Below are positions 7,957-64,000 of a stretch of DNA of 64,000 nucleotides, piece by piece (position 1 is the stretch's first letter; each line of letters starts with the position of its first letter). The notes below the pieces were generated by a model. It was not told where the DNA came from, ran no database searches, and saw only the letters and a program-made list of their open reading frames with translations. Source of the DNA: an uncultured Muribaculaceae bacterium (GTDB taxonomy: Bacteria > Pseudomonadota > Alphaproteobacteria > Rs-D84); assembly GCA_965231035.1 (NCBI GenBank), contig OZ246409.1:257222-321221 (forward strand), written 5' to 3'. The translations under genes and the position numbers were made by a program.

Positions 7957-7994
7957 TCAACAAACCGTAATCATTATTCAATACAAATCTATCC

Positions 7995-41010: not shown

Positions 41011-41031
41011 ACAATGCATAAGGTTTTTAAA

Positions 41032-41373
41032 ATGACAGAATTAAAAAAAGAAAATTATCAAAAAGACGGATTGTATAAATTGCTTGAAAAAAATTCCGAA
41101 ACTTTTGAGTTGTATAATTATGATTTCCTTGCAATGGTTATTAAAAGAAATTCTAACGGATCTTTCCACGGAATACAGAACAGCAGAACATGTGGATTAA
41201 TTCCAATGTTACCCAAAGATGCTGAAAAGCGTTGGTATGAATGTGAAAAAGAACTTCAAAATACAAAAAATAATGTTAAAATTATCAACATTTCAAAAAA
41301 AGAGACTGTTGGTAGATTTCAGAATATTTTAAATTCTGTTTTAAATCTTCTAAAACCATGTAATGCAAAATAA
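41032..41373 (+). CDS. Small hypothetical protein (start at the second ATG, preceded by an AAGG RBS)
   Basis: MTELKKENYQKDG...; no recognised motifs. Confidence 0.35.
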   Translation: MTELKKENYQKDGLYKLLEKNSETFELYNYDFLAMVIKRNSNGSFHGIQNSRTCGLIPMLPKDAEKRWYECEKELQNTKNNVKIINISKKETVGRFQNILNSVLNLLKPCNAK

Positions 41374-48675: not shown

Positions 48676-50043
48676 ATGAAGAAACTACTTTTTGTATTTT
48701 TATTTTTACTTCCTGTTACTGCTTTTGCAGATGCTTTTGACGACGCTGTGGCAAAATATGAGTCTGATGTCAAAAATGCAACAAATATATTGAATAGTAA
48801 AATCACACAAAATACAAATCTTGTACAACTGTCCACAGATCAAGTAAACGATGATATGAAATCAACTGTCAGAACAGCTAAAAAGAAATTTAACAAACAG
48901 TTAAGTTCCCAAGAAAAAGAAGATGAACAAAAATATCAAGAAAAACAACAAGAAGTAAGTGAACAAACAGATGTTTCAAATTCCGCAAATTCATCAAATG
49001 TTACAAATCCTGATAAAATTGCCGAGCTTGAAGCCAATGCCAAGGCAATGAAAGATAAAGAAAACTCAACTGCAAATAAAATGCTGGGGGCGGCAGCCGT
49101 TGGCGCAACCGGAATTGGCGGCAGCCAATTGTTGCAAGGTCTGTCCGAAAAAAAATCAGACGATGCAGCCGAACGTGATATGAAAGCTTATCTGGCAACA
49201 TTTAAATGTGACTATGGTCAGGGACAAAATGTTAACGGTGGCGATAAATCAATCACCCTGCCCGGCGGAAATGTTTTAACATCTTATTACACAGAATATA
49301 AAACTCTGGCAGCTAATCTTAAAACTACGAAAACTGCTTTGGGATTAACACCTGGAATTGAATCTGAAACATTATTGGATAAATCAACCGCAGGGCTTTA
49401 TGACAATGAATCAACTGGCAAAAAATCTGGTGCTTTTGCCAGCGTATCTGATGCCTTGTCTGGGAATGCAGATGCTAAAGACGCTTGGAATGCCCAAAAA
49501 TCCGAAGCATCTAAAAAGGTCACAACTGGTATTGTTGCCGCCGGCGTTGGTATTGTTGGTGGCGCAGTTGGAAATATGTTGATAAATAAAGATTCCACCA
49601 AGGAAAGTTCAGATGTAAATTCTGATGATAAAAAAACAAATGATACAAGTTCTTCTGTGACTTCTTCTGATAAAAGCAATGAACAAAAAATATCTTCTGT
49701 TACAAATGATAATGTTTCTTTGGATAACACAGATAAAAAAACTAATACTTTTGAAGATTTAGACAAAAAATATAAAGACGCAGCAATCAAATTCAAAGAA
49801 GCAGACGAATTATATAATAAATTAGCTAATGAAAGTATGAAAAACGGTGGTGTTGTTACTGAAGAATTAGAAGATGCAAGAATTGCGCGCGACCAAGCAG
49901 AGAAAGACCTTGAAACTGCAAAAAGTGAAACTGTTACAGCCAATTCATCTATGAAAGAAATTCAAACTGGAAATAATACCTCTGATGATATCTCGAAACT
50001 ATCTAATAATTCTTCTACTTTGTCATTGCGAGGAATGAAATGA
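48676..50043 (+). CDS. Hypothetical exported protein with Gly-zipper segments; the last 9 codons and the stop are supplied by a repeat element
   Basis: Signal peptide; MLGAAAVGATGIGG and GIVAAGVGIVGGAVGNML. The C-terminus STLSLRGMK* is encoded by ttgtcattgcgaggaatgaaatga. Confidence 0.5.
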   Translation: MKKLLFVFLFLLPVTAFADAFDDAVAKYESDVKNATNILNSKITQNTNLVQLSTDQVNDDMKSTVRTAKKKFNKQLSSQEKEDEQKYQEKQQEVSEQTDVSNSANSSNVTNPDKIAELEANAKAMKDKENSTANKMLGAAAVGATGIGGSQLLQGLSEKKSDDAAERDMKAYLATFKCDYGQGQNVNGGDKSITLPGGNVLTSYYTEYKTLAANLKTTKTALGLTPGIESETLLDKSTAGLYDNESTGKKSGAFASVSDALSGNADAKDAWNAQKSEASKKVTTGIVAAGVGIVGGAVGNMLINKDSTKESSDVNSDDKKTNDTSSSVTSSDKSNEQKISSVTNDNVSLDNTDKKTNTFEDLDKKYKDAAIKFKEADELYNKLANESMKNGGVVTEELEDARIARDQAEKDLETAKSETVTANSSMKEIQTGNNTSDDISKLSNNSSTLSLRGMK

Positions 50044-50202
50044 TGTATTAACTGGATTGCCACGCTTCGCTCGCAATGACAAATTGTTGGGGTTAGTTAT
50101 AGTTCCAGTTTGTCATTGCGAGGAATAAAATGACGAAGCAATCCAGGTTGATAAAAGAAAAACATATTGACTGGATTGCCGTGCTTCGCTCGCAATGACA
50201 AA
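50019..50202. repeat. Cluster A of RPE-like hairpin repeats: two elements built from inverted units TTGTCATTGCGAGG...GACGAAGCAATCCAG and CTGGATTGCCrCGCTTCGCTCGCAATGACAA
   Basis: Units at about 50019-50033 plus 50052-50083, and 50109-50147 plus 50171-50202. Confidence 0.75.
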
Positions 50203-50208
50203 TCTAAA

Positions 50209-50237
50209 TTAAAAACCGCCCATTTGGGCGGTTTTTA
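50209..50237. terminator. Intrinsic terminator
   Basis: aaaaaCCGCCCAtttGGGCGGttttt. Confidence 0.45.
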
Positions 50238-50251
50238 ACTTTTATACCTTA

Positions 50252-52300
50252 TTATTGGCATGCGCCATAAGATACTGCAACTGGATGATTATCTACGCAA
50301 GTGCTGCCAGAAACAACACATGCTGTATTTACCAATTGTGTATTGGTTGAATTAACCGGTTTATAATTCAGCTGTGCTGCTGCGCACTGGTTCAAATCTT
50401 TCAGTGTTGCACAAGCATTCTTCCACGAAGTACAATCTGTCGCAGTTGCTGTTGGCATAATTGTATCTGGCAAACGCAGGTTCCATTTGACATAGAAGTC
50501 TTTTAACGAACCAATGCTATAAGATTTACCAAAGTCAACCTTTTGCAATCCGTCACCAACACGACAGTTAATGTTGTTCTTTTCAACAAAAGATGTGATT
50601 GCTGTTGCCAATCCACCTGCGGCGGCACCAGCACCGGCACCAATTGCAGTTGACGCCAACATGTTTGAATCCTCACCCTGCAATATTGTCAACTGATTCA
50701 TAACATTTCCCAGTTCTTTTACTTGTTTTCCAAATTCTTCACTATCAACGCAATTATTGTTATTCCCCGAACAATATGGTTTTATACCATTCTTTTTTGC
50801 AAGATTCAAGTTACTGAATGTCATGGCACATTTATCTGTCGATGTTATAACAGTATTATCATTAGAAAGTTTTTTTACCGTTATTTTAATACTTCTGGTT
50901 CCATCATCAGTCAGGTATTTTACCTTATCTTCTGTCAAACTATTATTCATTACTTCACGATCTTTATTATCCTTTGAAACTTTGTCAAGCATTGCTTTAC
51001 TAGTAGTTCCATCGAAAAGTATATCTTTTGCTGTTACATCTATATCTTCGGTATTAGTAATATTTATTGCTGAATTTGTTGTACCAGTTGTGCATGATTT
51101 CAATGCAACTTTTGCTGCTTGGTAATCACTGTAAAGTGTAACTATGGCTTCGCACTGATCGCCAATATATTCATTTACAATAATCTGGCTTTCAGAATCC
51201 AAGAATTGATTTAAAACAGCGACCTTGCCAGTTGCACGCAATTCCTTATCCAATTCTTTTACCTGATCTTTGTCTTTGCAGTTAAAGTTACGTTGACCAT
51301 GGCCGGCCAATGCACCGATACCTGCACCAACCAATGTACCACCACCAACACCAACGACTGATGTGGTCTTGGTCTTGGTCATCAAACCAAACCCAAACAT
51401 ATCTTTACCACAGTTAAAGCTGCTGCCTGCTGATTTCCAAACTTCGGCCGGTTGATCATTTCCAGCGGCACCAAATAACCAACTGTTTTTGATTTGTGAA
51501 TCTTTGTTGTACGCTGCAACACGAACCAAACATTCACCCTTGACCGCATCCCATCTGGCATAATGTCCACGTTGTGCATCAACAGTACCATTATTATTAA
51601 CCCTTACACCCTGAGGCATATCTTTGGTCAAAGATCCACCAGACTGACTGTTATAAGCACCAACAGTTTGGTTATATTCTTCTGTGACTTTTCCACCATT
51701 CGAAATCGCTGCAAAAGATGAACCATAAGTATTTTTATCCAACAACCAACATGTATTTTCTGCTTGGTTTGGTGTTAATCCTGTTTTGCGCAGAACAAAA
51801 GAATAATATTCAGGTTGAATCTTGCGAGAGTTATAGTCCCACCAAAAATCAGAAGAAGTAGCATAAACATTTTTGCAATTCTTACGAACGTCGCTGATAC
51901 ATTTATCCACCTGGGCATAACACAGACTCATTCCATTAAAGATAGAATTACGCAAATCTTCGTTGAACAAATCGTTTAACCCACCAGGAAGTGCACCGTT
52001 GTTAATACAAGAAGTAACATCGTTGATGCAATTTTCAACTGTATATTCAGAATTTGCAACACCACCATCTGGACACTTGGAAACTGTTGTTCCTGTATTC
52101 GTTGTAGTATTACCAGTCGCATTGCCAGGAAGAATTGACATTGTTGGCATACGTTGCTGACCTGCTGTATAGGCTGCCCCACGAACCGGTGCAACATTAT
52201 AACCCGCACGCCCTGTATCCGCTGCACCTGCAGAACCTAGAACAAAAACTGTACTTGCAGACACAATGGAAAACCCGAATTTCTTTAATAAATTGTGCAT
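50252..52300 (-). CDS. Large exported protein with Cys pairs and two Gly/Ala-zipper segments
   Basis: Signal peptide MHNLLKKFGFSIVSASTVFVLGSAGA; VGVGGGTLVGAGIGALAGHG; AIGAGAGAAAGGLATAITS. Confidence 0.45.
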   Translation of the reverse strand: MHNLLKKFGFSIVSASTVFVLGSAGAADTGRAGYNVAPVRGAAYTAGQQRMPTMSILPGNATGNTTTNTGTTVSKCPDGGVANSEYTVENCINDVTSCINNGALPGGLNDLFNEDLRNSIFNGMSLCYAQVDKCISDVRKNCKNVYATSSDFWWDYNSRKIQPEYYSFVLRKTGLTPNQAENTCWLLDKNTYGSSFAAISNGGKVTEEYNQTVGAYNSQSGGSLTKDMPQGVRVNNNGTVDAQRGHYARWDAVKGECLVRVAAYNKDSQIKNSWLFGAAGNDQPAEVWKSAGSSFNCGKDMFGFGLMTKTKTTSVVGVGGGTLVGAGIGALAGHGQRNFNCKDKDQVKELDKELRATGKVAVLNQFLDSESQIIVNEYIGDQCEAIVTLYSDYQAAKVALKSCTTGTTNSAINITNTEDIDVTAKDILFDGTTSKAMLDKVSKDNKDREVMNNSLTEDKVKYLTDDGTRSIKITVKKLSNDNTVITSTDKCAMTFSNLNLAKKNGIKPYCSGNNNNCVDSEEFGKQVKELGNVMNQLTILQGEDSNMLASTAIGAGAGAAAGGLATAITSFVEKNNINCRVGDGLQKVDFGKSYSIGSLKDFYVKWNLRLPDTIMPTATATDCTSWKNACATLKDLNQCAAAQLNYKPVNSTNTQLVNTACVVSGSTCVDNHPVAVSYGACQ

Positions 52301-52421
52301 TATTTCTCCCTTTAATTGTTTTAATTATAGCACCAAATACACTATAAAAAAAGTATTTTCTGTATAAAAAACAAATTAATATTCTGCGGTTTTAATATTT
52401 TTTACGTTTTAGTAGTAATAT

Positions 52422-52450
52422 TTGACAAATAAACAAAATTCGTCTATTAT
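52422..52450 (+). promoter_or_regulatory. Sigma-70-type promoter TTGACA-N17-TATTAT with the ATG only about 7 nt downstream; possibly leaderless
   Basis: The start of the track ORF coincides with the TTGACA box. Confidence 0.35.
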
Positions 52451-52457
52451 TAAATTG

Positions 52458-53384
52458 ATGAAAAAGCTGTCTGAGTTTTTAAAGACAAATGTGCTGGCAG
52501 TAAAGTGGACCTTTTGGTATTTTGCTGCGTTTTATGCTGTCCTGTCCTTTTTATTTGGATTTAATATATTTTCTGCAAATGATTGGATTATGATTACTCA
52601 TTCCAGATTGCGCGGACTACCTGGTTTTACTTTTGGAATTATTATGTTTTCAGCAATTCCTTTGTACATTGCGACTACTGCAACAATTATAAAAACGAAA
52701 AAACCTTTATTTAATTTCTTTACTGCAAAAAAAGAAGAACCTAAAAAAATAGCCGAAGAAAAAAAAGAAGTTTTCAAAGAAATTATTATTCAATTTCCAG
52801 AAAGAATGCCGACTGAATTACGTGGTGCGTTTATTCGTGCAAGACAACAAGCTGGTGTCAGACCAGAATCTGCCTTTGATATGAAAGACATAAAATCACA
52901 ACCAAAAGTGGCAATCGAAGAAAAAAAAGAAGAAACACCAGAATTTGGTTTACCATTGCCTGATAATTTTGATTTTACATCTGAAAACGAATCGCCTGCC
53001 GAATTACAGTTCAGTTCAACACCTGTGTTCAAAGAAATTAATTTTGGAGATTTTAATACAAAGAAAGATAGCAAATCACCATTGATTGAACATCTTGAAA
53101 GCAAAGGATATGAAATTGCTTTTGATGGTAATGTTGTAATCGCAAATAATTTTGCAATTGCGGTTCACGACGATTCGGATTTTTGGATTGCTGATAAAGA
53201 CAATTGGTTTGCAGCAGGCAAACAAAAAGAATCCCCCATATCCGAAGTTTTAATGGTATCTGAAAAACACGGTGTAAATGCGATGATTTATTTGGCGGAA
53301 AAAAATATTATGGATTTGGACAAACGAATTGCAGAATGGGAATTCAAAGGAGTCAAGGTTATTAAAAACCTGACTGAAATTTAA
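52458..53384 (+). CDS. Hypothetical membrane protein (3 N-terminal TM helices plus a cytoplasmic or periplasmic domain)
   Basis: MKKLSEFLKTNVLAVKWTFWYFAAFYAVLSFLFGF...; K/E-rich linker; C-terminal globular part. Confidence 0.4.
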   Translation: MKKLSEFLKTNVLAVKWTFWYFAAFYAVLSFLFGFNIFSANDWIMITHSRLRGLPGFTFGIIMFSAIPLYIATTATIIKTKKPLFNFFTAKKEEPKKIAEEKKEVFKEIIIQFPERMPTELRGAFIRARQQAGVRPESAFDMKDIKSQPKVAIEEKKEETPEFGLPLPDNFDFTSENESPAELQFSSTPVFKEINFGDFNTKKDSKSPLIEHLESKGYEIAFDGNVVIANNFAIAVHDDSDFWIADKDNWFAAGKQKESPISEVLMVSEKHGVNAMIYLAEKNIMDLDKRIAEWEFKGVKVIKNLTEI

Positions 53385-53398
53385 TTAGCTAATAAAAC

Positions 53399-53538
53399 TT
53401 GTCATTGCGAGGAGTGCAACGACGAAGCAATCCAGTGGATAAAAATGCAAAAGCATACTTACTGGATTGCCACGCTTCACTCGCAATGACAATCTGGTCT
53501 TATTTACTGGATTGCCGCGCTTCGCTCGCAATGACAAA
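53399..53538. repeat. Cluster B of RPE-like hairpin repeats (one full element plus one solo unit)
   Basis: 53399-53436 and 53462-53492 form a hairpin; a solo unit lies at 53507-53538. The units are the same as in cluster A. Confidence 0.75.
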
Positions 53539-53542
53539 GAAA

Positions 53543-53571
53543 TAAAAAATCCGCCAAGGCGGATTTTTTAT
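53543..53571. terminator. Bidirectional intrinsic terminator
   Basis: aaaaaATCCGCCaaGGCGGATtttttt. Confidence 0.5.
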
Positions 53572-56349
53572 TTACATCTGTACACCATTTGTAACTGTTG
53601 TTGGATCTTTGAATTTAGTACAAAAAACACCTTCAAATTTTTTCGTCACTCTTTTTCTTCCACCACCTATATGCAATATACCACCTCCACCTTTGCATCC
53701 ACCACCACCAAAAAAACTTAACCCACCATAACTACAAGTATTAGATTTTGAATAAACATCTTTAAATGTATCACACATAGTCGTAACTGTAGTTATATTG
53801 CAAGTATTAGATGAAGATGAATATACAGAAGTTAAAGAAACCTTTCCAATCATATTACCCTTAGTATCCGTTTGAGTCCATTCAGAATGACCACTGGATG
53901 CTACAGAAATTATATCCGACATCTTTGCACCACTTATAATATATTTCATTGAGTAAATATCATTACCAGACACACCTTTACTTGATGTATCATCAAACAA
54001 ATCAGCATAAGATGTAGCTTCATATGCTGTGCAATTCCCGTCAGAATCATAAGTTTTACAAGATTTAGGTTCTGATGCCATAGCTGCACACATTGCTGTT
54101 TTTAAATCATCATTTTGATTTTCTAATGCTTCTGATACCATTTTATCATACTTTTTATTATAGTTTTTATTTGCTTTTTCCAAGCCAGAATTCATTATAG
54201 CCAATATAGAAGAATCTAATAAATTTGGATATCTTGCCGTAGATGTTGTTGATACTGCATTTGTTCCATCACCACGAATTTGTGTCATATCACGACCCTC
54301 AATACACATCTTTATTTTTGCATCCTGAGACAAGACAGCTATCTTTTGATTCATCTTATTTGCCGTGGATTGTAAAGATGAAACAACGCGTGAGGTCAAA
54401 GAATCTGAAGATAATAAATGATTTTTGTAATCATTTATATCAATCTCGTACTTACCAAATTTTACATCTGTATCACTACTTTTTGTCCTTTCAATTTTCA
54501 CATTTCCATAAGAAACTAATCCTTCAATTACATAATCTCCATTATTATCCTTGTAACTGGATAAACTTTCTGTACCAATAGAATCATCATCATCGAATGC
54601 TGTGCAATTATCAGTATCACCACATATTTCTATCATTTTTTCAGACACAATTTTTTGACATTTATCCAGCAGCGAATTATCTATATTAAGGTAAATTCCT
54701 TGTACTATATTATCTATATCATTAATATTATTTAAAACGCCATCTTTTTGACATCCTACCAGTTTATCAATTGGACATAGTTTCTTTATATCACTCAAAT
54801 CTAAACCTATACAATTATGAAAATCTTCGCCGCAAGTATTTTCATTAGTGAAACATTCTTTAACTTCGGTTGTACAAGAATCAACACGCATTGCTGATAA
54901 TTTTGCATAGACATAATCCAGAATCAAAGGTTCTGCTGAAACACAAGGATCGATTTGCACTTTGCATAAAGAACGAACTGTTTCTGGACGTGATAAACAC
55001 ATATCATATGAACCATCCGGATCATTTGGATCAATTGTATCTTTACATGCTTTTTGGAAACATGAGGATATATTAGAAATACAATTTGTCCGTAAATTAG
55101 ATTCAGCCAATAGTTCAGCTGTTTTTAAAGTTGGTGCAACATCACGCAAAAATGAATTCCAAACCTGGTCTTTTACTGCAACACAAGAATTTGTTATATT
55201 TTCACACATTGGTTTTTTTGATTCCAGCGCATCCATAGTGGATGCAGCAACTGAAATTTTTGTATTTGATCCGGTTATATCAACCATCTTCATAGAAGAC
55301 TTAGAACTGCTGGACATCTTGGCATTTTCAGCCGCAGCAATTCCAACACAGCCTGTAAAATCACTTTTGCAACCTGCTGTATCAGTCATGCATTTTTCAA
55401 AAGCCAAAGTACACTGACCTAGGTCATATTTATTTGCTGTACGTAATGAATCCAAAGCGGCATCACGCAGAGCCTTTTGTGCAGTTGCTAATTTCTGTGT
55501 GCTGGAATTTTTTTGCTTAGTTAAATCATTTTCATACGCCGCACAATCAGATTTTATATTCTGAGAATAACCAAGTTGTATCATTGCCAAATCTTCTGAA
55601 CATTCTGGAATTTGTGCTGAACACAATTCAGCAACAGAACTATACAAGTCATTACCTGTTTTACCTTCAACAGGGCTTACCTCTCTTTGTGCAAATATAT
55701 CTTGATCCATTGTATCAGAATCCGTCTGATTCCACTGACTTAAATCCAACGTTTTTTTCTGGGTTACATTACTAGTTGTTAAACTATTTGCTGTATTGTT
55801 TGCAGATGCGATTACTTTATCTGCATCAGAACCCATTTCAATTTTTTCAACACCCTCGGTTGCCATTTTATAACTTTGAGCATCCAAAGCCTGAATCTGA
55901 ACCTGAACCTTATCCAGCTCAGCCTTGCGATCACTGCATAAACAACGACCGCCACTGGTGTTTTCAATCATACAAAAAGAATCCATACATCCATAATATT
56001 TTTGCTTACAAGCTTCATCCACTATTATATTCTTGTTCACACCAGAAATTGCAGTACCTGAATTTATAACTTTTTGCATAGTCCCAGCACGTGCAGAAAC
56101 AACTGGCGCGGACATTGGAGTTGCCGCAGATCTGGCAGATATTGTTCGAACGTTTGAAGATGTTGCACTGGGCATTACAGCTGAACGTGCAGAAGTTGGT
56201 CTGACAGCAGCACGTGCCGACACGGGTGTTTGTGCAGTGCTTTCAGATGGTTGTGATACAGATTGACCACGCCTTTGCACAGGAACTTCAGCATTTGCAC
56301 ACACAACAAAGGTTGCCATAAAAATAGAAAAAATTGCAATTTTTCTCAT
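53572..56349 (-). CDS. Large secreted cysteine-rich protein, family member 5 (close paralog of 20963-23464)
   Basis: Signal peptide MRKIAIFSIFMATFVVCANA; SARSAVMPSATSSNVRTISARSAATP; CKQKYYGCMDSFCMIENTSGGRCLCSDR; CGEDFHNCIGLDLSDIKKLCPIDKLVGC; Gly-rich C-terminus. Confidence 0.7.
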   Translation of the reverse strand: MRKIAIFSIFMATFVVCANAEVPVQRRGQSVSQPSESTAQTPVSARAAVRPTSARSAVMPSATSSNVRTISARSAATPMSAPVVSARAGTMQKVINSGTAISGVNKNIIVDEACKQKYYGCMDSFCMIENTSGGRCLCSDRKAELDKVQVQIQALDAQSYKMATEGVEKIEMGSDADKVIASANNTANSLTTSNVTQKKTLDLSQWNQTDSDTMDQDIFAQREVSPVEGKTGNDLYSSVAELCSAQIPECSEDLAMIQLGYSQNIKSDCAAYENDLTKQKNSSTQKLATAQKALRDAALDSLRTANKYDLGQCTLAFEKCMTDTAGCKSDFTGCVGIAAAENAKMSSSSKSSMKMVDITGSNTKISVAASTMDALESKKPMCENITNSCVAVKDQVWNSFLRDVAPTLKTAELLAESNLRTNCISNISSCFQKACKDTIDPNDPDGSYDMCLSRPETVRSLCKVQIDPCVSAEPLILDYVYAKLSAMRVDSCTTEVKECFTNENTCGEDFHNCIGLDLSDIKKLCPIDKLVGCQKDGVLNNINDIDNIVQGIYLNIDNSLLDKCQKIVSEKMIEICGDTDNCTAFDDDDSIGTESLSSYKDNNGDYVIEGLVSYGNVKIERTKSSDTDVKFGKYEIDINDYKNHLLSSDSLTSRVVSSLQSTANKMNQKIAVLSQDAKIKMCIEGRDMTQIRGDGTNAVSTTSTARYPNLLDSSILAIMNSGLEKANKNYNKKYDKMVSEALENQNDDLKTAMCAAMASEPKSCKTYDSDGNCTAYEATSYADLFDDTSSKGVSGNDIYSMKYIISGAKMSDIISVASSGHSEWTQTDTKGNMIGKVSLTSVYSSSSNTCNITTVTTMCDTFKDVYSKSNTCSYGGLSFFGGGGCKGGGGILHIGGGRKRVTKKFEGVFCTKFKDPTTVTNGVQM

Positions 56350-56433
56350 AACAAAATCTCCAATGCTTGATTTATTTTATCAGAAAAATCAGATTTATGA
56401 AAGACTTTTAATAAAAATCTATTATTTAAACCC

Positions 56434-56470
56434 TAAAAAAATCCGCACGAATGCGGATTTTTTATTTTTT
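56434..56470. terminator. Bidirectional intrinsic terminator
   Basis: aaaaaaATCCGCAcgaaTGCGGATtttttatttttt. Confidence 0.5.
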
Positions 56471-56481
56471 AGATTTTTTGA

Positions 56482-57024
56482 TTATTTTCCTGTCGAACGA
56501 CGTTTAACAGAAACTTCTTTCTTTGCTGATGTTGACTTAGAAACACCTGTATCTTTTGCAACTTTTGTTGCAACTGGTGCTTTTGGTGCTTTCTTTTCAG
56601 CAACTGGTGCAGAAGTTTTCTTTTCTTCTGTTTTCGCAGGTGCTACTTTTTTCGCATTTTCGTCACGATCAACCAATTCAATTATTGCCATCGGTGCAGC
56701 GTCACCATAGCGGAAACCTGCTTTCAATACACGTGTATAACCACCTGGACGTTTTGCATAACGTGGTCCCAAAACAGTGAACAATTTTTTAACTGTTGAT
56801 TCACCACTGTTACCAAGTTCAGATGCCAACAAACGACGATTTGCGACAGAATCAACTTTGGCGCGTGTGATTAATTTTTCCACAACCGAGCGAAGATCTT
56901 TTGCTTTTGGCAAAGTTGTTTTAATTTGTTCTTTTTCAATCAAGTTTTTTGCCAAGCCTAAAAACAAAGCTTTGCGTGCGCTGTTATCGCGGTTAAATTT
57001 GCGTTTTGCTATTTGATGTCTCAT
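56482..57024 (-). CDS. rplQ: 50S ribosomal protein L17 with a K/A/P-rich C-terminal extension
   Basis: [21 protein letters not shown]...; tail [14 protein letters not shown]. Confidence 0.85.
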
Positions 57025-57241
57025 TTATTCGCTCCTTTTGTTGCAGCCTGCTGTTACACAGGATCAAGACATTTTCATAACCTGAAAATATTTCAGAATT
57101 ATGAAGTTTTTCCAAGTTTCAAAAAACAACTTGGTAAGAAATTAAATTAAAATAATGCAGATGCGAAGCATTTGTCAAAGGGAGTGTATTGGACATACAT
57201 GACCGAAAACAAATGCCAGCAGATGCGTTATTTTATTTAAT

Positions 57242-58270
57242 TTATTTGTATGGGTCTTCGTATTTCTTGGACAACTCAGAAATATTTTCTGGTGGCCAAC
57301 CTGGTACTGTTATACCCAATCCCAAACCCATTGCTTCTAACTGAGCTTTGATTTCGTTCAAAGATTTGCGACCAAAGTTTGGTGTTTTCAGCATATCTGC
57401 TTCGGTCTTTTGAACCAATTCGCCCAACCAGTTAATTTTATCATTCTTCAAGCAATTGTTTGCACGAACAGACAATTCTAATTCGTCTACATGCTTTAAC
57501 AATTTTGGATCAAATGGTAATGCGTCTTTTGCTTTTTCTTCTTCTTTGACTGCGCTGATTTGTGCAGGATCTTCAAAGTTAATAAATACGACCAATTGAT
57601 CTGTCAAAATACGTGAGGCATATGCAATTGCATCTTCTGGAGAAACACTGCCGTTTGTTTTAACAGTCATTTCCAATTTATCAAAGTCTGTTGACTGACC
57701 AACGCGTGTTTCAGAAACTTGGAAAGCAACATTCAAAATCGGGGAAAAGATAGAATCAACAGGGATAACACCTAATGGCAAATCTTCGGCATGTGCGTTT
57801 GCAGCAACATACCCACGACCTGTACCTAATGTGATTTCCATATCCAAAGATGCACCTTTGTCCAGGTTGCAAATTTCAACATCTTTGTTCATGACTTCAA
57901 TGCCACCACTTGTTTCAATCATACCTGCTGTAACAACTGCTGGACCTTTTACTTTTAATAAAGCTTTGTGTTGACCTTCGGTCAGTGCTTTAAAATAAAC
58001 ACCTTTTAAATTTAATATAATGTCTGTTACATCTTCGCGTATGCCAGACAAGCTGGAAAATTCGTGTTGAACACCATCAATTTTAATATACAACGGTGCG
58101 CATCCCTGTAAAGAAGACAGCAGAACGCGACGCAATGCGGTGCCCAAAGTCAGACCAAATCCCTTTTCCAATGGATCTGCGATTAATGTTGCAATATTTG
58201 GATTATTTTCATCGATTTTGATATTCAGCTTTTTTGGCTTAATCAAAGTCATCCAGTTTTTTTCGATCAT
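57242..58270 (-). CDS. rpoA: DNA-directed RNA polymerase alpha subunit
   Basis: The N-terminal domain and the C-terminal domain ELSVRANNCLKNDKINWLGELV are both present. Confidence 0.9.
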   Translation of the reverse strand: MIEKNWMTLIKPKKLNIKIDENNPNIATLIADPLEKGFGLTLGTALRRVLLSSLQGCAPLYIKIDGVQHEFSSLSGIREDVTDIILNLKGVYFKALTEGQHKALLKVKGPAVVTAGMIETSGGIEVMNKDVEICNLDKGASLDMEITLGTGRGYVAANAHAEDLPLGVIPVDSIFSPILNVAFQVSETRVGQSTDFDKLEMTVKTNGSVSPEDAIAYASRILTDQLVVFINFEDPAQISAVKEEEKAKDALPFDPKLLKHVDELELSVRANNCLKNDKINWLGELVQKTEADMLKTPNFGRKSLNEIKAQLEAMGLGLGITVPGWPPENISELSKKYEDPYK

Positions 58271-58407
58271 TTTGATTCCTTGTGGTTTAGTTTATTATTT
58301 TCACCTTAAAGGCCCGGGGATTTTAACCTGTGTTTGCCAAATTGTCAAGAAAAACCTTGCTTTTTAGTAATTTTATGTAAAGATTCGTCTGAAACAGGAG
58401 GTGTAAT

Positions 58408-58980
58408 ATGAAACAACTATCTGATTCTTACTTTAAAACTGTACAAGATTTTGTACTAAAAAATCTTCAAAACCGTAATGTTATCGTTAGTTTTGGAAAA
58501 TCACACACTGATTTTGGGTATTCTGACAAAAACTTCTTTAAATTGGAAGCATTGAAAACTTTGTTTGATAAGGCCAATTATCATATTTCTAATTTGGGCG
58601 CAAAAAAACTTGACGGTACCCAAAAAGATGTTTTTTATGATTTACAAGAATTCACATCTTTCCCTTTTGAGGATTCGGAATCTAATAAGAAACTTTTTGA
58701 TGTGCTCAAAGAATCAAATAACGGTTTTGTTCACTCGACTTATATTGAAAAGATTTTTATAAAATTTCCTGTTTTTGATTCTGGCAAAGTAAGACAGGTA
58801 CAAATTTCTGCTTTTCCAGAAGTAAGTGATTTTATAAAAGATCTCAGCTTTGAGCTATTAGCTTCAAAAATTAAAAAAATGAAATTATTAGATGCAGTTA
58901 TTACTTCAAATAATCCAAAAAGAATTCCCCGCAGAAAAACTGCAACGTTAAGTAGTGAAACACCTCAAAATCAAAGATAA
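58408..58980 (+). CDS. Hypothetical protein (islet gene 1)
   Basis: 190-aa ORF with a GGAGG RBS; no recognised motifs; very AT-rich. Confidence 0.4.
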   Translation: MKQLSDSYFKTVQDFVLKNLQNRNVIVSFGKSHTDFGYSDKNFFKLEALKTLFDKANYHISNLGAKKLDGTQKDVFYDLQEFTSFPFEDSESNKKLFDVLKESNNGFVHSTYIEKIFIKFPVFDSGKVRQVQISAFPEVSDFIKDLSFELLASKIKKMKLLDAVITSNNPKRIPRRKTATLSSETPQNQR

Positions 58981-59006
58981 AAAACCGCCAACTGGCGGTT
59001 TTTTAT
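58981..59006. terminator. Bidirectional intrinsic terminator
   Basis: aaAACCGCCaactGGCGGTTtttt. Confidence 0.5.
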
Positions 59007-59011
59007 AATAT

Positions 59012-59881
59012 TTATAAAAACCATTCTAATTTTTTCACAAGTTTTTTAACTTCTTTTTCTTTGATATCTCCCAAAGATGTTGAAACAATTGCCCAACAAA
59101 CACAGTTTACCCTATCTACCAAAGAGGTTTTTATTACGATTTCAATATCAACATGTATCCCAGATTTCAATTCATAAGCGTGTAAGATTTCTTTCAGAAA
59201 ATCCTTGTATTTTGGGTTATAAAGACTTTGAAAATCATACGCTCTATTACCAAAATTAGCATCTGCCCAGTCAAAAACACCTGTTAGGTGTAAATCTTTA
59301 TTTATTAAACTATTTCCACCACTGAAATCACGATGTAATAGGACAATATCATCAGAATTAAAAATATCTGCATTTTCATATTTATTGTATATATTACTTA
59401 TTTCTTTATCTGATAAAAACGGCTGTAAATTTTTATTTACATAATCAAAAGATTCCAATTTAAATTTTCTTATTTTTAATAAGCCTGGAAATTCTTTTTC
59501 TATTTTATTTTTATCTATTTTGTGAACAGAATTAAAAAAACTTGCACAATCATTTATAAAATTTTTTTGCAAATCATATGGTTTATTATTTATACCTTCA
59601 ACGTCCCAACCATTACCAAGTAACATTTTATGAGTTGTATATGGATATTCAACATTATCTACTATTATAATTTTTGGAATTTGAACTTCAATATCATTAC
59701 GAACAAAATCTGTTATTTTTTGTTCTTTTTTATAATCATCCATATTCTTTTTAGGAAATCTTAATATATTATCATCGACAATAAATGCTATTGAATCCCA
59801 GCCTTCTCCAACAAAGTTTATTTTTGAACTTGAAAACTTATCTTTTAAAAAATCTTCTAAAATATCTTTATTTATTACCAT
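59012..59881 (-). CDS. Phosphotransferase-family kinase (APH/ChoK-like; aminoglycoside or macrolide phosphotransferase-like)
   Basis: Gly-rich loop plus Lys: FVGEGWDSIAFIV...ILRFPK. Brenner motif HRDFSGGN (HxDxxxxN). Metal-binding DWADA. Confidence 0.6.
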   Translation of the reverse strand: MVINKDILEDFLKDKFSSSKINFVGEGWDSIAFIVDDNILRFPKKNMDDYKKEQKITDFVRNDIEVQIPKIIIVDNVEYPYTTHKMLLGNGWDVEGINNKPYDLQKNFINDCASFFNSVHKIDKNKIEKEFPGLLKIRKFKLESFDYVNKNLQPFLSDKEISNIYNKYENADIFNSDDIVLLHRDFSGGNSLINKDLHLTGVFDWADANFGNRAYDFQSLYNPKYKDFLKEILHAYELKSGIHVDIEIVIKTSLVDRVNCVCWAIVSTSLGDIKEKEVKKLVKKLEWFL

Positions 59882-59913
59882 TAATTGACCTTTTTACAAT
59901 CAAGATTATATCA

Positions 59914-59947
59914 TAAAAAACCCGCCAATTGGCGGGTTTTTATTTTA
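59914..59947. terminator. Intrinsic terminator
   Basis: aaaaAACCCGCCaattGGCGGGTTtttatttt. Confidence 0.5.
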
Positions 59948-60331
59948 TTAAACGCGGCGGACTTTCTTTGGTCTGCAACCATTATGTGGAATACGTGTTG
60001 TATCTGTGATGCTTTGAACAATCAAACCAGCATTTGACAAACCACGAACAGCAGATTCACGACCCTGACCAATACCACGCATCAGAACATCAACTGTTTT
60101 CATTCCCATTTCAGCAACTTTCTTACCAATGCTGTCTGCAACAACAGTAGCTGCATATGGTGTTGATTTCTTGGCGCCCTTGAAATTATTTGCGCCAGCG
60201 GTTGCCCAAGTCAATACACTGCCTGCTTGGTCTGTGATTGTAATTCTGGTGTTGTTATTAGTTGCAACTACATGGGCAATACCATGAGATACTTTTTTAA
60301 TAACTTTCTTTTTTGTTTTTGCAATTGCCAT
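59948..60331 (-). CDS. rpsK: 30S ribosomal protein S11
   Basis: GIAHVVATNNNTRITITDQAG... Confidence 0.9.
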   Translation of the reverse strand: MAIAKTKKKVIKKVSHGIAHVVATNNNTRITITDQAGSVLTWATAGANNFKGAKKSTPYAATVVADSIGKKVAEMGMKTVDVLMRGIGQGRESAVRGLSNAGLIVQSITDTTRIPHNGCRPKKVRRV

Positions 60332-60355
60332 TATTTATACCCTATTTTTTATTTT

Positions 60356-60733
60356 TTATTTACCCTTGCTTGCACTGCCAGAAACGACAACACGTTTACC
60401 TTTTCTGGTACGTGCGTTTGTCTGTGTACGTTGACCACGAACTGGCAAACGGTTACGATGACGAATACCACGATAAGTTTTAAGATCTTGTAAACGTTTT
60501 ATGTTCATTTGAACTTCACGGCGAACATCACCTTCTACTTTGAAATTTTCTTCAATGTAATTAGAAATGTTCACAACTTCTGTGTCGGTCAAATCTTTTG
60601 CGCGCAAACTGTCTTTGATTTTCAAAGCCTTGCAAATTTGGGCCGATTTTTTTGGTCCAATGCCATAGATATATCTTAACGCAATTTCAACGCGTTTTTC
60701 TGATGGAATGTTCACACCTGCTATACGTGCCAT
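60356..60733 (-). CDS. rpsM: 30S ribosomal protein S13
   Basis: [26 protein letters not shown]. Confidence 0.9.
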
Positions 60734-60826
60734 ATTATATTTTCCTTTTTATTTTTTACCACTATCGTTTTGCTGCATTATTTTATATCAAATACAACAA
60801 AAGTCAAACTTGTTTTTACCTTTTTA

Positions 60827-62143
60827 TTAACCCAAGACGCGGAAACGCCCCTTCTTTTTCTTGATAACATTGCTGTATTGCTTTGCAACAAGATATGACT
60901 GAACCTGGTTCATAGTATCCAATACAACGCCCGCAACGATCAAAACACTTGTTCCACCAATCATCAGTGGCATACCGAGACGAGTGTTTAATATTATAGG
61001 CAAAACACAAACGACTATCAGATATAAAACACCGATTACCGTCGTTCTGGAAACAACACCATCCAAATGATGAGTTGTTTGTTCGCCTGGACGAACCCCC
61101 GGAATATAACCACCTGCATTTTTAAGATTGTTACTTGTTTCTTCAGAGTTGAAAACAACCGCTGTTTGGAAAAATGCAAAGAAAGCAATTAACAAAGTAA
61201 ATACCCCAAGATATGTCCAAGTTCCATAAGTTAAAAATCCAATAATATTCTGAACTATTAAATTTTCACTTTGTGCAAAACGTTGAATAAATGCTGGCAA
61301 CATCATAATACTGGATGCAAAAACAGGTCCCATAACGCCAGACATATTTATCTTTATAGGAAGATAAGAGGCATTAGTATTTGCAACACCATTCGCCATA
61401 ACTTGACGTGGATATAAAATTTGGATACGACGTTGTGCCTGTTCAACGAATGCTATCAATGCGACTATACCGACAATAAAAACAATTATTAAACCAATCA
61501 TCGCAGGTGACATCTGACCAACGGAACCAAAAGACAACATCTTTGCAATACCGTTCGGAATTTGTGCAACTATTCCAGCAAAGATTAATAACGAAGAACC
61601 CTGTCCGATTCCGCGTGATGTTATTTGTTCTGCTAACCACATAACGAAAACTGTTCCGCCAACTAACGCAATAACCGCTGAAAGTTCAAATATGAATCCT
61701 GGATTAACAACAGCGTAAACACCATTTACTGGTGCCATTGATTCCAAACCACGAACAATCGCCCAACCTTGGATAACTGCCAATAAAACTGCCAAATATC
61801 TGGTATATTGGTTGATTCTTATACGACCTGCTTCGCCTTCTTTGCGTAATTCACTCATTGATTTACTGGTTGCAGATAATAATTGAATAACAATAGAAGC
61901 AGATATATATGGAAAAATGTTCAAAGCTAAAATAGACATACGTGACAATGAACCACCGCTGAACATATCAAACATTCCCATCATTCCGTTATCACTGTTG
62001 AACAAATGTAAAACCGCGGAAGCATTTACACCAGGCAATGGGATAAAAGAACCAATACGATAAACAATTAACGCACCAAGTGTAAACAAGATGCGCTTTT
62101 GCAAATCTGATAAATTCTTAAAAAAGTCTTTTATAAACTTCAT
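60827..62143 (-). CDS. secY: Preprotein translocase subunit SecY
   Basis: 10-TM profile; LGALIVYRIGSFIPLPGVN; GIGQGSSLLIFAGIV. Confidence 0.9.
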   Translation of the reverse strand: MKFIKDFFKNLSDLQKRILFTLGALIVYRIGSFIPLPGVNASAVLHLFNSDNGMMGMFDMFSGGSLSRMSILALNIFPYISASIVIQLLSATSKSMSELRKEGEAGRIRINQYTRYLAVLLAVIQGWAIVRGLESMAPVNGVYAVVNPGFIFELSAVIALVGGTVFVMWLAEQITSRGIGQGSSLLIFAGIVAQIPNGIAKMLSFGSVGQMSPAMIGLIIVFIVGIVALIAFVEQAQRRIQILYPRQVMANGVANTNASYLPIKINMSGVMGPVFASSIMMLPAFIQRFAQSENLIVQNIIGFLTYGTWTYLGVFTLLIAFFAFFQTAVVFNSEETSNNLKNAGGYIPGVRPGEQTTHHLDGVVSRTTVIGVLYLIVVCVLPIILNTRLGMPLMIGGTSVLIVAGVVLDTMNQVQSYLVAKQYSNVIKKKKGRFRVLG

Positions 62144-62174
62144 TACGGTTTAATCTCTCTCGAATACCAGTATG

Positions 62175-62633
62175 TTATTTATTTTTTATTGAACCACCAG
62201 CTTTAGAAATAGCTTCTTCGGCTGATTTGGACCATTTTTCAGCAACAATGTTTACGGCTGTTTTGATTTCACCCTTGCCTAAAACTTTCAAACCAGAAAG
62301 TCTGCGGTTGATAATTTTTGCATCAATCAAAGAATCTAAAGTGATAACTTTTTTCGCATCAATTTTTCCAGCTTTGACAAATTTTTCAATATCGCCCAAG
62401 TTGATTGTTACATAAGTTTTTGCGAATGGATTTTTAAATCCGAATTTTGGAAAACGACGCAAAATTGGCATCTGACCACCTTGGAATGTTGCCTGTTTAC
62501 GTGAACCGGCACGTGCTTTTTGACCTTTGGTTCCACGACCAGCAGTTTTGCCATATCCAGAACCCAAACCACGTCCAACGCGTTTGATACTTTTACGTGC
62601 GCCAAAATTATCCATCAATGCATTCAGTTTCAT
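62175..62633 (-). CDS. rplO: 50S ribosomal protein L15
   Basis: MKLNALMDNFGARKSIKRVGRGLGSGYGKTAGRG. Confidence 0.9.
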   Translation of the reverse strand: MKLNALMDNFGARKSIKRVGRGLGSGYGKTAGRGTKGQKARAGSRKQATFQGGQMPILRRFPKFGFKNPFAKTYVTINLGDIEKFVKAGKIDAKKVITLDSLIDAKIINRRLSGLKVLGKGEIKTAVNIVAEKWSKSAEEAISKAGGSIKNK

Positions 62634-62649
62634 TTTATTTATTCCTTAG

Positions 62650-62826
62650 TTTATTTTACAATCGTTACCATATGAGAAACTTTGGCAATCATACCACGAA
62701 CAGATGGTGTATCACCCAATTCTTTGGTTTTACCAATACTTCCCAAACCCAAAGCCTTCAAGATTTTTACCTGAGAATCTGGTTGTCCGATAATACTTTT
62801 AACTTGTTTTACAATTATTTTAGACA
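62650..62826 (-). CDS. rpmD: 50S ribosomal protein L30. It is shorter than 60 aa and so absent from the ORF track; coordinates are good to about 1 nt
   Basis: The minus strand translates to MSKIIVKQVKSIIGQPDSQVKILKALGLGSIGKTKELGDTPSVRGMIAKVSHMVTIVK. Confidence 0.7.
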
Positions 62827-62858
62827 TGTTCGTTACCTTTTAAATCTTTAAACCAGCA

Positions 62859-63413
62859 TTATTGATCTTGTGTTTCATCTGTATGCTTTTTACCATCACG
62901 GCCAGCAATAATTTCTGCAACTGTTTTTCCACGACGAGCAGCAACAGATTTAGGAGAATTCATTCTAGCAAAAGCATCAAACGCTGCACGGATCATATTA
63001 TTTGGATTGTTACTGCCTTGGGATTTAACAACAACATCTTGGACACCCAAGCATTCAAATACTGCACGTAATGCACCACCAGCGATAATACCAGTTCCAG
63101 GAACTGCACTGCGGATAACAACTTTGCTGGCACCGTATTTAGCAGCCGAGTCATGATGCAAAGTGCGACCTTCTTTCAAAGGAACACGAATCATTTTAGC
63201 CTTGGCAGCCTTGGTTGCTTTTTGAACAGCAGATTGGACTTCCAATGCTTTTCCTTTGCCGAAACCAACGCGACCCGCTTTGTCACCTACAACAACCAAA
63301 GCGCTGAAAGACATATTGCGTCCACCCTTAACGGTTTTGGAAACGCGATTGATAGAAACTAGTTTATCTACCAAGTTGTCTGTTTGTAATTTTTTATCAT
63401 CAAAACGTGCCAT
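62859..63413 (-). CDS. rpsE: 30S ribosomal protein S5
   Basis: [22 protein letters not shown]... Confidence 0.9.
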
Positions 63414-63458
63414 TACTTATGCTCCTTCATTGCAAAGACTTTGCTTTGCATTAAATTT

Positions 63459-63815
63459 TTAAATATTTACCCCACCTGCGCGTATAGCTTCGCACAAGGA
63501 CTTGATACGACCATGATAGCGATAACCACCACGATCAAAATAACAATTCTTTTCAATCTTTGCCTTCTTTGCACGTTCAGCAAAAGATTTTCCAACTAAT
63601 TCTGCACCAGCAACATTCCAACCTTTGCCTTTGAAAGCTTTTTCTTTGGAAGATGCAGCACAAACTGTATGACCTTTGACATCGTCAATGGCCTGAATTT
63701 CAATGTGACGACCAGAACGGAAAACCGACAAGCGGATTTTTCCAGGGTTTTTTCTTTTCAACGCACCACGATTAGATAGCTTGCGTCTCTCATCAGTAGA
63801 TAAATGTTTTAACAT
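63459..63815 (-). CDS. rplR: 50S ribosomal protein L18
   Basis: [18 protein letters not shown]... Confidence 0.85.
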
Positions 63816-63858
63816 TTTTTTTCCTTTTTTGCATCCCCGTAACAGCGGGAATTATTTT

Positions 63859-64000
63859 TTATCTTTGTTTGTTTCCATTTATATAGTCAGCATAGTTATT
63901 TCTTTTTTTTGTTGCTGCTTCACCTATTTTTTTGGCTGCATAACCCCCTGCAACTATCAAAGCAAAAAGAAACGCTCCAAATCCAACTATCTCTGCTGTA
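63859..64000 (-). CDS. Partial CDS (C-terminal 46 codons) of a small membrane protein upstream of rplR; it is not L6
   Basis: Open minus frame ...TAEIVGFGAFLFALIVAGGYAAKKIGEAATKKRNNYADYINGNKQR*. Confidence 0.25.
   Translation of the reverse strand, partial: TAEIVGFGAFLFALIVAGGYAAKKIGEAATKKRNNYADYINGNKQR

Follow-up and report, generated by a model that had tools for sequence, protein, structure and literature searches.

The rpsK-rpoA junction of a Candidatus Enterousia-type genome: two genes as probable lineage-specific cargo in a hypervariable slot

The current report concerns a 64,000-nucleotide stretch of contig OZ246409.1 (GenBank assembly GCA_965231035.1), referred to here as the window, and in particular the gap of 1,677 bp (58271-59947) that separates rpsK from rpoA in its alpha operon. 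The gap holds two intact accessory genes, one for a kinase of the aminoglycoside phosphotransferase (APH) family and one for a protein of 190 amino acids that we call hyp190; the coordinates of both open reading frames (ORFs) are exactly those claimed in an earlier, sequence-only reading of this DNA, and Pfam agrees. We consider it likely that this 1.68-kb segment is lineage-specific accessory cargo in a slot that is hypervariable throughout the genus, and that the operon had already been split when the cargo arrived. Overall, the kinase and hyp190 genes appear as ordinary accessory cargo in an unusual, genus-wide hotspot.

The course of events that we propose begins with the splitting of the operon, after which the insulated spacer would have gathered genes. 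DNA that lies between a terminator and a promoter would be transcriptionally insulated, and insertions into it might on that account be tolerated. Different lineages have filled this interval with different genes, as the comparison of loci shows, and in the lineage leading to the window genome one event would have brought in a solitary gene for a kinase resembling the APH(2'') enzymes together with the orphan gene for the 190-residue protein.

The window comes from an alphaproteobacterium of the Candidatus Enterousia type whose genome is reduced. Enterousia has been placed in the order Rs-D84, its genomes are mostly smaller than 1 Mb, and it has neither the tricarboxylic acid cycle nor a respiratory chain (PMC12306168). 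The gut of farm animals and humans is the habitat given both by that source (PMC12306168) and by the titles of the records that were fetched for the comparisons described below.

The rpsK-rpoA junction and the division of the alpha operon

RpoA served as the query for fetching the loci of relatives, each species being represented by a single genome, and of at least 577 matches the best 80 were used. Nearly all of these 80 loci, in which RpoA identity to the window is 74-93%, come from gut metagenome-assembled genomes (MAGs) labelled Candidatus Enterousia, Alphaproteobacteria or Rickettsiales. The canonical alpha operon has the order rpsM-rpsK-rpsD-rpoA-rplQ in Escherichia coli and rpsM-rpsK-rpoA-rplQ in most Alphaproteobacteria. 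In 52 of the related loci rpsK is co-oriented, and there it lies 24 to 4,279 bp from rpoA, with a median of 1,598 bp and with 46 of the distances above 500 bp. The shortest gap, of 24 bp, belongs to the most distant genome, which serves as the outgroup (L080), and gaps of 109-204 bp occur in five species (L057, with 109 bp; L037, with 134 bp; L077, L052 and L002). In a further 14 loci, the 6 kb upstream of rpoA contain no rpsK in the same orientation; rpsM-rpsK is inverted downstream of rpoA in three of them (L068, L071 and L073), as it likewise is in L075, whose upstream flank is ended by the contig edge. The control spacers of the same loci measure 41-185 bp (secY-rpsM), 1-172 bp (rpsM-rpsK) and 90-633 bp (rpoA-rplQ), the last with one exception of 4.7 kb and with values above 500 bp in 2 of 80 loci. 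Hypervariability is confined to the rpsK-rpoA junction and is not general to the region. The sequence-only reading had taken the segment to be an interruption of a conserved junction, a description that the genus as a whole does not support, given the 46 long gaps and their unrelated contents.

The contents of the slot are as variable as its length. Upstream of rpoA in 83 loci, 195 ORFs of at least 70 amino acids fall into 103 clusters, and the commonest of these (C0), a small secreted protein encoded divergently from rpoA, is found in 33 loci. Other occupants include an NAD-dependent epimerase (L001), alpha/beta-hydrolases, an NT5C nucleotidase, a large serine recombinase (L028), an XRE regulator, a family 2 glycosyltransferase (GT2), a VirB11-like ATPase, large Cys-rich surface proteins and many orphans, and there are rearranged housekeeping genes as well, namely rpsB-tsf (L017) and clpX (L005). 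Of 94 slot ORFs examined for composition, 85% are lower in GC than the core genes, with a mean difference of -4 points; the kinase gene of the window, at -14 points, is the compositional extreme. The closest relative of the window (L081; RpoA nonsynonymous divergence, dN, 0.001 and synonymous divergence, dS, 0.14) carries between its hyp190 and rpoA genes an additional ORF of 208 amino acids without a family match (7532-8158 of that locus) and, beside it, a fresh rpoA promoter that agrees with the consensus at 12 of 12 positions. That so near a relative should have gained an extra ORF suggests that turnover in the slot is still ongoing.

A second fast-evolving element is associated with the locus. 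Directly downstream of rplQ, the window encodes on the minus strand a Cys-rich protein of 925 amino acids with a signal peptide and without a Pfam match (53572-56349). Homologs of 37-68% identity follow rplQ in most relatives, and six loci (L009, L033, L068, L071, L073 and L074) have one upstream of rpoA instead, so that the protein has the appearance of a fast-evolving surface-protein family tied to this locus.

The signals that bound the slot are far more constant than its contents. When the ~130 nt 5' of rpoA were compared across the 83 loci, a promoter of the form TTGACW-17-TA[AG]AAT was predicted 47-80 nt before the rpoA ATG in ~80, regardless of the gene upstream, and a leader block 3' of it (GGYGAAAATRATAAACTAAGC) was found to be near-invariant. 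At the other border, of 56 related loci at least 47 have a GC-rich hairpin with a U-run, a putative terminator, directly after the rpsK stop, and it is kept in the short gaps of L002, L037 and L057. Two of these species (L057 and L037) hold both terminator and promoter in gaps that are essentially cargo-free. The outgroup (L080) has neither signal; L077 and L052 also lack both, yet their leader block is already there, as it is in all loci of the Enterousia clade. The occurrence of both signals in species nearly devoid of cargo means that the split of the operon predates the cargo. By this comparison the alpha operon is shown to have consisted, already in an ancestor of the clade, of two predicted transcription units, rpsM-rpsK with its terminator and rpoA-rplQ with a promoter of the sigma-70 type and a leader. 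The basal states that are still visible (a 24-bp spacer, cargo-free spacers of 109-134 bp, filled gaps) suggest that the split came first and made insertion tolerable later.

These comparisons bear in two ways on what had been proposed from the sequence alone. The expectation that rpoA has a promoter of its own holds up, in that one is predicted at 58348-58320 and conserved in ~80 relatives. The proposal that the island itself supplies the terminator that splits the operon does not, since rpsK has its terminator and rpoA its promoter across the clade, also in gaps of 109-204 bp.

Several further observations can be made on the signals of the divided operon. In ~80 species the leader block takes the form GG[CT]GAAAAT[AG]ATAAACTAAGC[CT], is ~20 nt long and lies 13-20 nt before the rpoA ATG, and in many species a variable GC-rich 5' hairpin is inserted between the rpoA -10 and the block. 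The block could be a translational enhancer or a binding site for a protein or a small RNA; a structured element is unsupported by RNAalifold, which yielded a stem of only 3 bp for the rpoA leader. The 217-bp rpoA-rplQ spacer of the window (57025-57241) contains a promoter-like TTGACA-18-TATTTT on the minus strand (57178-57149), and the 4.7-kb insertion noted above in the corresponding spacer of L052 (3734-8451) raises the possibility that the alpha cluster may be split further. Upstream of rpsM, the Rfam model Alpha_RBS (RF00140) matches the minus strand at 60701-60806 with 30.6 bits (E=2.8e-4), below its gathering threshold of 38; the rpsM-rpsK unit may keep S4 autoregulation although rpsD is outside the cluster. 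The usual alphaproteobacterial order is secY-adk-rpsM. In the window adk, infA and rpmJ are absent between secY and rpsM, which are separated by a spacer of only 93 bp (60734-60826).

The kinase-hyp190 pair: layout and history

The features of the locus in the window are as follows.

56482-57024, minus strand: rplQ (ORF)
57242-58270, minus strand: rpoA, which opens the downstream unit rpoA-rplQ (ORF; Pfam RNA_pol_A_bac, RNA_pol_L, RNA_pol_A_CTD)
58284-58305, minus strand: rpoA leader block GGTGAAAATAATAAACTAAACC, near-invariant in the clade
58320-58348, minus strand: predicted rpoA promoter TTGACA-17-TAAAAT (11 of 12 consensus positions)
58340-58360, plus strand: conserved block AATTGTCAAGAAAAACCTTGC 5' of hyp190, overlapping the rpoA -35 on the other strand
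58408-58980, plus strand: hyp190, 190 amino acids, convergent with the kinase gene and divergent from rpoA (ORF; AGGAGG Shine-Dalgarno sequence at 58396-58401)
58977-59006, both strands: predicted bidirectional terminator common to the kinase and hyp190 genes (13-bp stem, U-runs on both strands)
59012-59881, minus strand: APH(2'')-like kinase, 289 amino acids (ORF; Pfam APH)
59905-59913, minus strand: extended -10 element of the kinase gene, TGaTATAAT, read from the sequence and of putative function
59916-59941, minus strand: predicted intrinsic terminator of rpsK (hairpin and U-run)
59948-60331, minus strand: rpsK (S11), final gene of the upstream unit (ORF; Pfam Ribosomal_S11, E=2e-37)
60356-60733, minus strand: rpsM (ORF)
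60827-62143, minus strand: secY (ORF)

The lower GC content that had been noted for both genes is borne out by comparison with the 52 non-overlapping window ORFs of at least 100 amino acids (mean 36.4%, SD 4.3). The kinase gene, with 25.1% GC overall and 14.5% at third codon positions (GC3), has the lowest value of all (z=-2.65), and hyp190 has 29.5% (z=-1.6). Genes on either flank of the gap have 38-41% GC, and a sliding profile gives 22-31% across the gap against 36-40% to either side. Three small ORFs elsewhere in the window (31793-32110, 40614-40973 and 41014-41373; 105-119 amino acids) have a kinase-like composition of 26-27% GC (z about -2.3), and might be accessory or orphan genes or might be spurious.

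Each of the two genes had been credited with a terminator of its own. Both hairpins exist, one at 59916-59941 (dG -17.4 kcal/mol, z -4.8) and one at 58977-59006 (dG -18.0 and -17.4 kcal/mol, z -6.3 and -5.9, on the two strands), and their assignment is to be revised. The first, with the rpsK stop (59948-59950) on one side and the kinase start (59881) on the other, would therefore terminate rpsK rather than the kinase gene, and the second is common to the two cargo genes. An Rfam scan gave only sub-threshold matches of the kind that is typical for terminators. Neither gap gene matches a recombinase family in Pfam, NCBIfam or PHROGs, and the gap holds nothing besides the pair; apart from the terminator hairpins no meaningful direct or inverted repeats were found to flank the segment, and there is no tRNA gene in window positions 50000-64000.

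Within this architecture the kinase gene is probably read from its own extended -10 promoter, possibly boosted by read-through from rpsK. The putative -10 lies ~24 nt upstream of the ATG and is followed by an AAGG ribosome-binding site, and the motif TGnTATAAT is kept directly after the U-run of the rpsK terminator in the window and in three related contigs (L081, L082 and L084). Upstream of hyp190, a block AATTGTCAAGAAAAA...C.TTGC is kept in the window, L081 and L082; at 58340-58360 the window and L081 are identical over 21 nt, and in L082 three nucleotides (AAA) are inserted and one is substituted. The block includes TTGTCA, the reverse complement of the rpoA -35; hyp190 and rpoA therefore apparently have back-to-back divergent promoters, and hyp190 would be transcribed divergently from rpoA. 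With both cargo genes ending at a common bidirectional terminator, rpoA would be insulated from them and its expression unaffected.

The pair has a traceable past. A word-indexed search of 5.8 billion proteins returned only three close homologs of the kinase, with 84%, 66% and 65% identity. The order rpsK, terminator, kinase, convergent hyp190-like gene and rpoA recurs in L081 and L082, and the third contig (L084), which ends inside hyp190 with rpoA beyond sight, agrees with the window over the portion from rpsK through terminator and kinase to hyp190. Neither gene was found in the loci of the 80 related species by tblastn or by hidden Markov model (HMM) searches. The sequence-only reading had remarked that an ancestral arrangement would place the same two genes here in related genomes; they are in place in the nearest relatives and in 0 of the 80 fetched species' loci.

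Divergence was estimated by the Nei-Gojobori method, with secY, rpsM, rpsK, rpoA and rplQ as the flanking genes. Between the window and L081, dS is 0.22 for the kinase gene and 0.07-0.22 for the flanks; between the window and L082 or L084 it is 0.63-0.66 and 0.47-1.11, respectively. This agreement between cargo and flanks indicates that they diverged together. The ratio dN/dS is 0.19-0.37 for the kinase gene, 0.18-0.26 for hyp190 and 0.01-0.08 for the ribosomal genes and rpoA, low values from which we infer that the kinase and hyp190 genes are functional, fast-evolving genes under purifying selection. Judged from these divergences and from the shared gene order, the comparison shows that four lineages at least have had the pair in this slot from their common ancestor onward, apparently as an old gain that was followed by vertical descent in one subclade.

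In a tree of concatenated SecY, S13, S11, RpoA and L17 sequences, the window, L081, L082 and L001 form one clade with 100% bootstrap support. The slot of L001 holds the epimerase in place of the pair, and this genome branches inside the kinase-bearing group with 42% and outside it with 51% bootstrap support.

The second gene of the pair is an orphan. It has no match in Pfam, NCBIfam, PHROGs or PADLOC; the word-indexed search with hyp190 returned only itself, and a scan of JGI metagenomes returned nothing. Its copies, in the window, L081, L082 and (partially) L084, each stand beside the kinase gene. An HMM built from three orthologs matched, among all ORFs of 94 loci, just these four known copies, from which it follows that hyp190 is unrelated to other genes divergent from rpoA, such as that for the C0 secreted protein. 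AlphaFold2 with the single sequence gave an unusable model (predicted local distance difference test, pLDDT, ~41). We also considered the kinase and hyp190 as a conserved two-component module, an idea ruled out by the absence of hyp190 beside all of the more distant kinase homologs.

Composition is less informative about the past of the pair than it appears at first sight. GC is low in every lineage that carries the genes (kinase 25-28%, GC3 14-20%; hyp190 26-30%), and such values are consistent with a foreign origin. There has been no drift toward the host over a dS of ~0.6-1, and low GC is therefore no evidence for recent acquisition. Horizontal acquisition, as it had been put forward for the two genes, can be retained in the sense of an old, lineage-specific gain from a patchily distributed, mobile, AT-rich family; as a recent event it is not supported, given the presence of the pair in the slot of three other lineages at a dS equal to that of the flanks.

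Some points weigh against our view of the segment as lineage-specific cargo in a slot opened by an earlier split of the operon. Every promoter and terminator at the locus is a prediction, and the species sample is limited to the best 80 of at least 577 matches. The tree fits a single gain after L001 had branched off as well as it fits an earlier gain with later replacement by the epimerase. Slot cargo generally is just ~4 GC points under the core genes, and GC3, steady at 14-20% over a dS of ~0.6-1, may reflect an equilibrium composition of weakly expressed cargo and not a donor signature. The island in the window has no integrase, transposase, tRNA, direct-repeat or inverted-repeat footprint that would point to a mechanism of insertion. 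Finally, a host without respiration argues against a classical aminoglycoside-resistance role for the cargo.

Two other histories might be envisaged for the pair. We regard it as very improbable that the ancestor of the entire Enterousia clade already had the kinase and hyp190 genes in this position and that most of its descendants later lost or replaced them. The contents of the slot clearly do turn over, and a position of L001 inside the kinase-bearing group, which is possible, would call for one replacement or more; yet the pair is known from 4 of ~84 lineages that make up a single subclade with 100% bootstrap support, relics of it were not seen elsewhere, the kinase gene is the compositional extreme among the 94 slot ORFs, and distant members of its family reside in other genomic contexts. 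Hardly credible is the scenario in which a recent foreign island broke up a contiguous rpsK-rpoA pair, brought a terminator with it and forced a new rpoA promoter into being, for although the very low GC, the hairpin at either end of the kinase gene and the lack of the pair in the 80 related species' loci would suit it, the rpsK terminator, like the rpoA promoter and leader, occurs throughout the clade, even in cargo-free gaps of 109-204 bp, the hairpin at 59916-59941 belongs to rpsK, the pair matches its flanks in dS across three other lineages, and a search for kinase or hyp190 relics in other species found none.

The kinase family and its possible substrates

Membership of the kinase in the APH superfamily is clear from its match to Pfam APH (PF01636) over residues 21-236 (57.6 bits against a cutoff of 23.2, E=2e-15). 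The motifs quoted in the sequence-only reading are all present: K44 (RFPK), H183-R-D185-F-S-G-G-N190 and D204 (FDWAD) are invariant among the four close homologs, and the catalytic residues align to the motifs of APH(2'')-Id. In an alignment of 48 family members D185, N190 and D204 are invariant, and G27, S30, F33, R41 and H183 are at least 90% conserved. Degenerate motifs, which had been named as the mark of a pseudogene, are thus not what is found; intact ORFs, invariant catalytic residues and a dN/dS below 0.4 rule out the pseudogene idea.

An exhaustive HMMER search with a profile of the four sequences recovered 894 relatives at a limit of E<=1e-3; at E<=1e-30 there were 50 representative clusters. 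The members are full-length proteins of ~280-295 amino acids, and those that bear a name all come from alphaproteobacterial MAGs. The next-closest relatives, with 33-45% identity, are solitary genes in unrelated contexts. One follows exbB-exbD and precedes an EamA transporter gene (L085); one overlaps two GT2 genes in a MAG of the Enterousia clade (L086, from the same assembly as L049); and one adjoins a YjhX toxin gene (L090). A homolog of 44% identity (P0008) lies in a phage-like element (L088, 192-7756), flanked by a large serine recombinase gene and by DUF2924, DUF5681, terminase and ParB-N6-methylase genes. In eight of nine contexts the kinase gene is 6-13 GC points under its host locus (hosts 37-52% GC), and this AT-richness across contexts is the signature of a horizontally mobile accessory family. 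Two of the contexts deserve a remark of their own. The position of P0008 is typical for a moron gene near an attachment site. Another homolog of 44% identity is encoded divergently from rplU-rpmA-obg-rsfS and followed by a staphylococcal-nuclease-like gene (L089, 5146-6837); its association with a ribosomal operon could be coincidence.

The nearest characterised relatives depend on how the comparison is made. With the single sequence, the best matches are to Mph enzymes (46-49 bits), with APH(2'') at ~40 bits. With the 48-member profile, APH(2'')-Id/IVa comes first (E=2e-39, 138 bits over 232 positions), followed by APH(2'')-Ia (3e-35), IIa (2e-32) and IIIa (1e-23); Mph (3e-22) stands behind APH(2''). 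None of the resistance families admits the kinase: the NCBIfam models for APH(2'') (NF033692, NF000508, NF000015, NF000044 and others) give 25-42 bits against cutoffs of 475-625, and those for Mph (NF000241, NF000240 and others) give 49.1 and 47.3 bits against 500 and 550. Among the 48 members, 45 match APH(2'')-I models, and the best E-value in the family on the APH(2'') models is 7e-21, far under the cutoffs. There is also a weak match to AmgK (E=0.002). Known phages and plasmids contain no close mobile relative of the kinase, the only related proteins among them being AAC(6')-APH(2'') and Mph with 24-25% identity. PHROGs and PADLOC have no match for it, and a second metagenome scan yielded only the L084 contig and one short fragment. 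An AlphaFold2 model based on the four-sequence alignment was unusable (pLDDT ~41). From these sequence relationships the kinase is assigned to an uncharacterised subfamily that is closest to APH(2'') and then to Mph, and that falls outside every defined resistance family.

By analogy with its relatives, the kinase would be an ATP- or GTP-dependent O-phosphotransferase that acts on the hydroxyl of a small molecule. For the substrate class our tentative choice is a compound of the aminoglycoside-like or aminosugar type, an assignment slightly more apt to be wrong than right, and classical aminoglycoside resistance, which is a subset of that class, seems unlikely. The uptake of aminoglycosides depends on respiration. 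In view of the missing respiratory chain and of the homolog that lies among glycosyltransferases, a classical drug is in our estimate no likelier as the substrate than a sugar-like compound or an aminosugar.

It is possible, if doubtful, that the kinase serves no resistance at all and acts, in the manner of AmgK or LicA, on an endogenous or scavenged sugar, an aminosugar or a precursor of surface glycans. The L086 homolog overlaps its two GT2 genes as if it were translationally coupled to them, the slot cargo of relatives includes an epimerase and a GT2 enzyme, and the AmgK match, though weak, points the same way; at the profile level, however, the kinase is far nearer to APH(2'') and Mph than to any sugar kinase, and the gene in the window is solitary, without glycan genes nearby.

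A true resistance enzyme, that is, an aminoglycoside 2''- or macrolide 2'-phosphotransferase whose gene stands directly behind a highly transcribed ribosomal unit and is thereby co-expressed with ribosome synthesis, is in our judgement rather unlikely. In its favour, the nearest characterised relatives are resistance kinases without exception, and 45 of the 48 members match APH(2'')-I models. The catalytic residues are preserved, and the gene runs in the same direction as rpsK, beginning 66 bp behind it. A further member of the family (P0007) likewise adjoins a ribosomal operon (rplU-rpmA-obg), and the guts of farm animals and humans are where the hosts live (PMC12306168). Set against this are scores that are ~ten-fold under the curated cutoffs (42-49 against 475-650 bits), an identity of ~24% to known enzymes, the location of other members between glycosyltransferase genes or near TonB/EamA genes, which points to non-antibiotic substrates, and the poor uptake of aminoglycosides that would be expected of a host without respiration (PMC12306168). 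In annotation, the kinase should not be named an aminoglycoside or macrolide resistance gene; its subfamily is so far limited to uncultured gut Alphaproteobacteria.

A bolder proposal, to which we give little credence, is that the slot is actively targeted. Mobile elements such as phages with serine recombinases would use the terminator hairpin or the 3' end of rpsK as an attachment site, the slot would be the main accessory locus of these sub-1-Mb genomes, and the kinase would confer read-through-coupled resistance to a ribosome-targeting antibiotic.

Comparison with known systems

The kinase has the APH fold, which resembles that of eukaryotic protein kinases, in common with the APH(2'') enzymes (APH(2'')-Id/IVa, PDB 4dtb and 3n4t; the APH(2'')-Ia domain of AAC(6')-APH(2''), PDB 4ork), as well as a similar length, the Gly-loop G-E-G-x-D-x-x-A, the lysine of F-P-K, the Brenner motif H-x-D-F-S...N and the metal-binding Asp of (I/F)-D-(F/W)-(G/A)-D. 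It differs from them in its identity of only ~24%, in scores far below the cutoffs and in belonging to a subfamily of its own, with ~50 clusters in uncultured Alphaproteobacteria. The Mph enzymes (Mph(E)/(G) and Mph(C); PDB 8ixi and 7w15) have the same catalytic motifs and provide the best single-sequence matches, but by family profile they are second to APH(2''), and the kinase is below their cutoffs of 500-650 bits.

Regions of genome plasticity are variable accessory segments that lie between conserved core genes. Of a classical genomic island the segment has the deviant composition and the patchy distribution but not the integrase, the repeats or the tRNA target. Chromosomal integration hotspots have been described with examples from Listeria and E. 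coli (PMC3556495, PMC13386857). Like them, the rpsK-rpoA slot has core-gene flanks, unrelated contents, AT-rich cargo and some genes of mobile elements (L028). Unlike them, it lies within a normally contiguous operon, its borders are a terminator and a promoter rather than a tRNA gene or att site, it spans a whole genus of genomes smaller than 1 Mb, and the copy in the window has no recombinase or repeat footprint. Reduced genomes are usually deemed to be syntenically frozen; here a genus with genomes below 1 Mb keeps one slot of fast turnover. A literature search found no description of a gene-turnover slot within the alpha operon of reduced genomes, and the genus-wide setting is apparently undescribed. 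Functions that are specific to individual Enterousia strains (surface proteins, glycan genes and kinases, for example) would naturally be sought in this slot.

With the canonical alpha operon the locus shares the order and orientation of its genes, and the outgroup (L080) retains the canonical spacer of 24 bp. The Enterousia clade departs from the canonical arrangement in having an internal terminator and promoter, both predicted, and the window departs from it further in its 217-bp rpoA-rplQ spacer and in the lack of adk between secY and rpsM.

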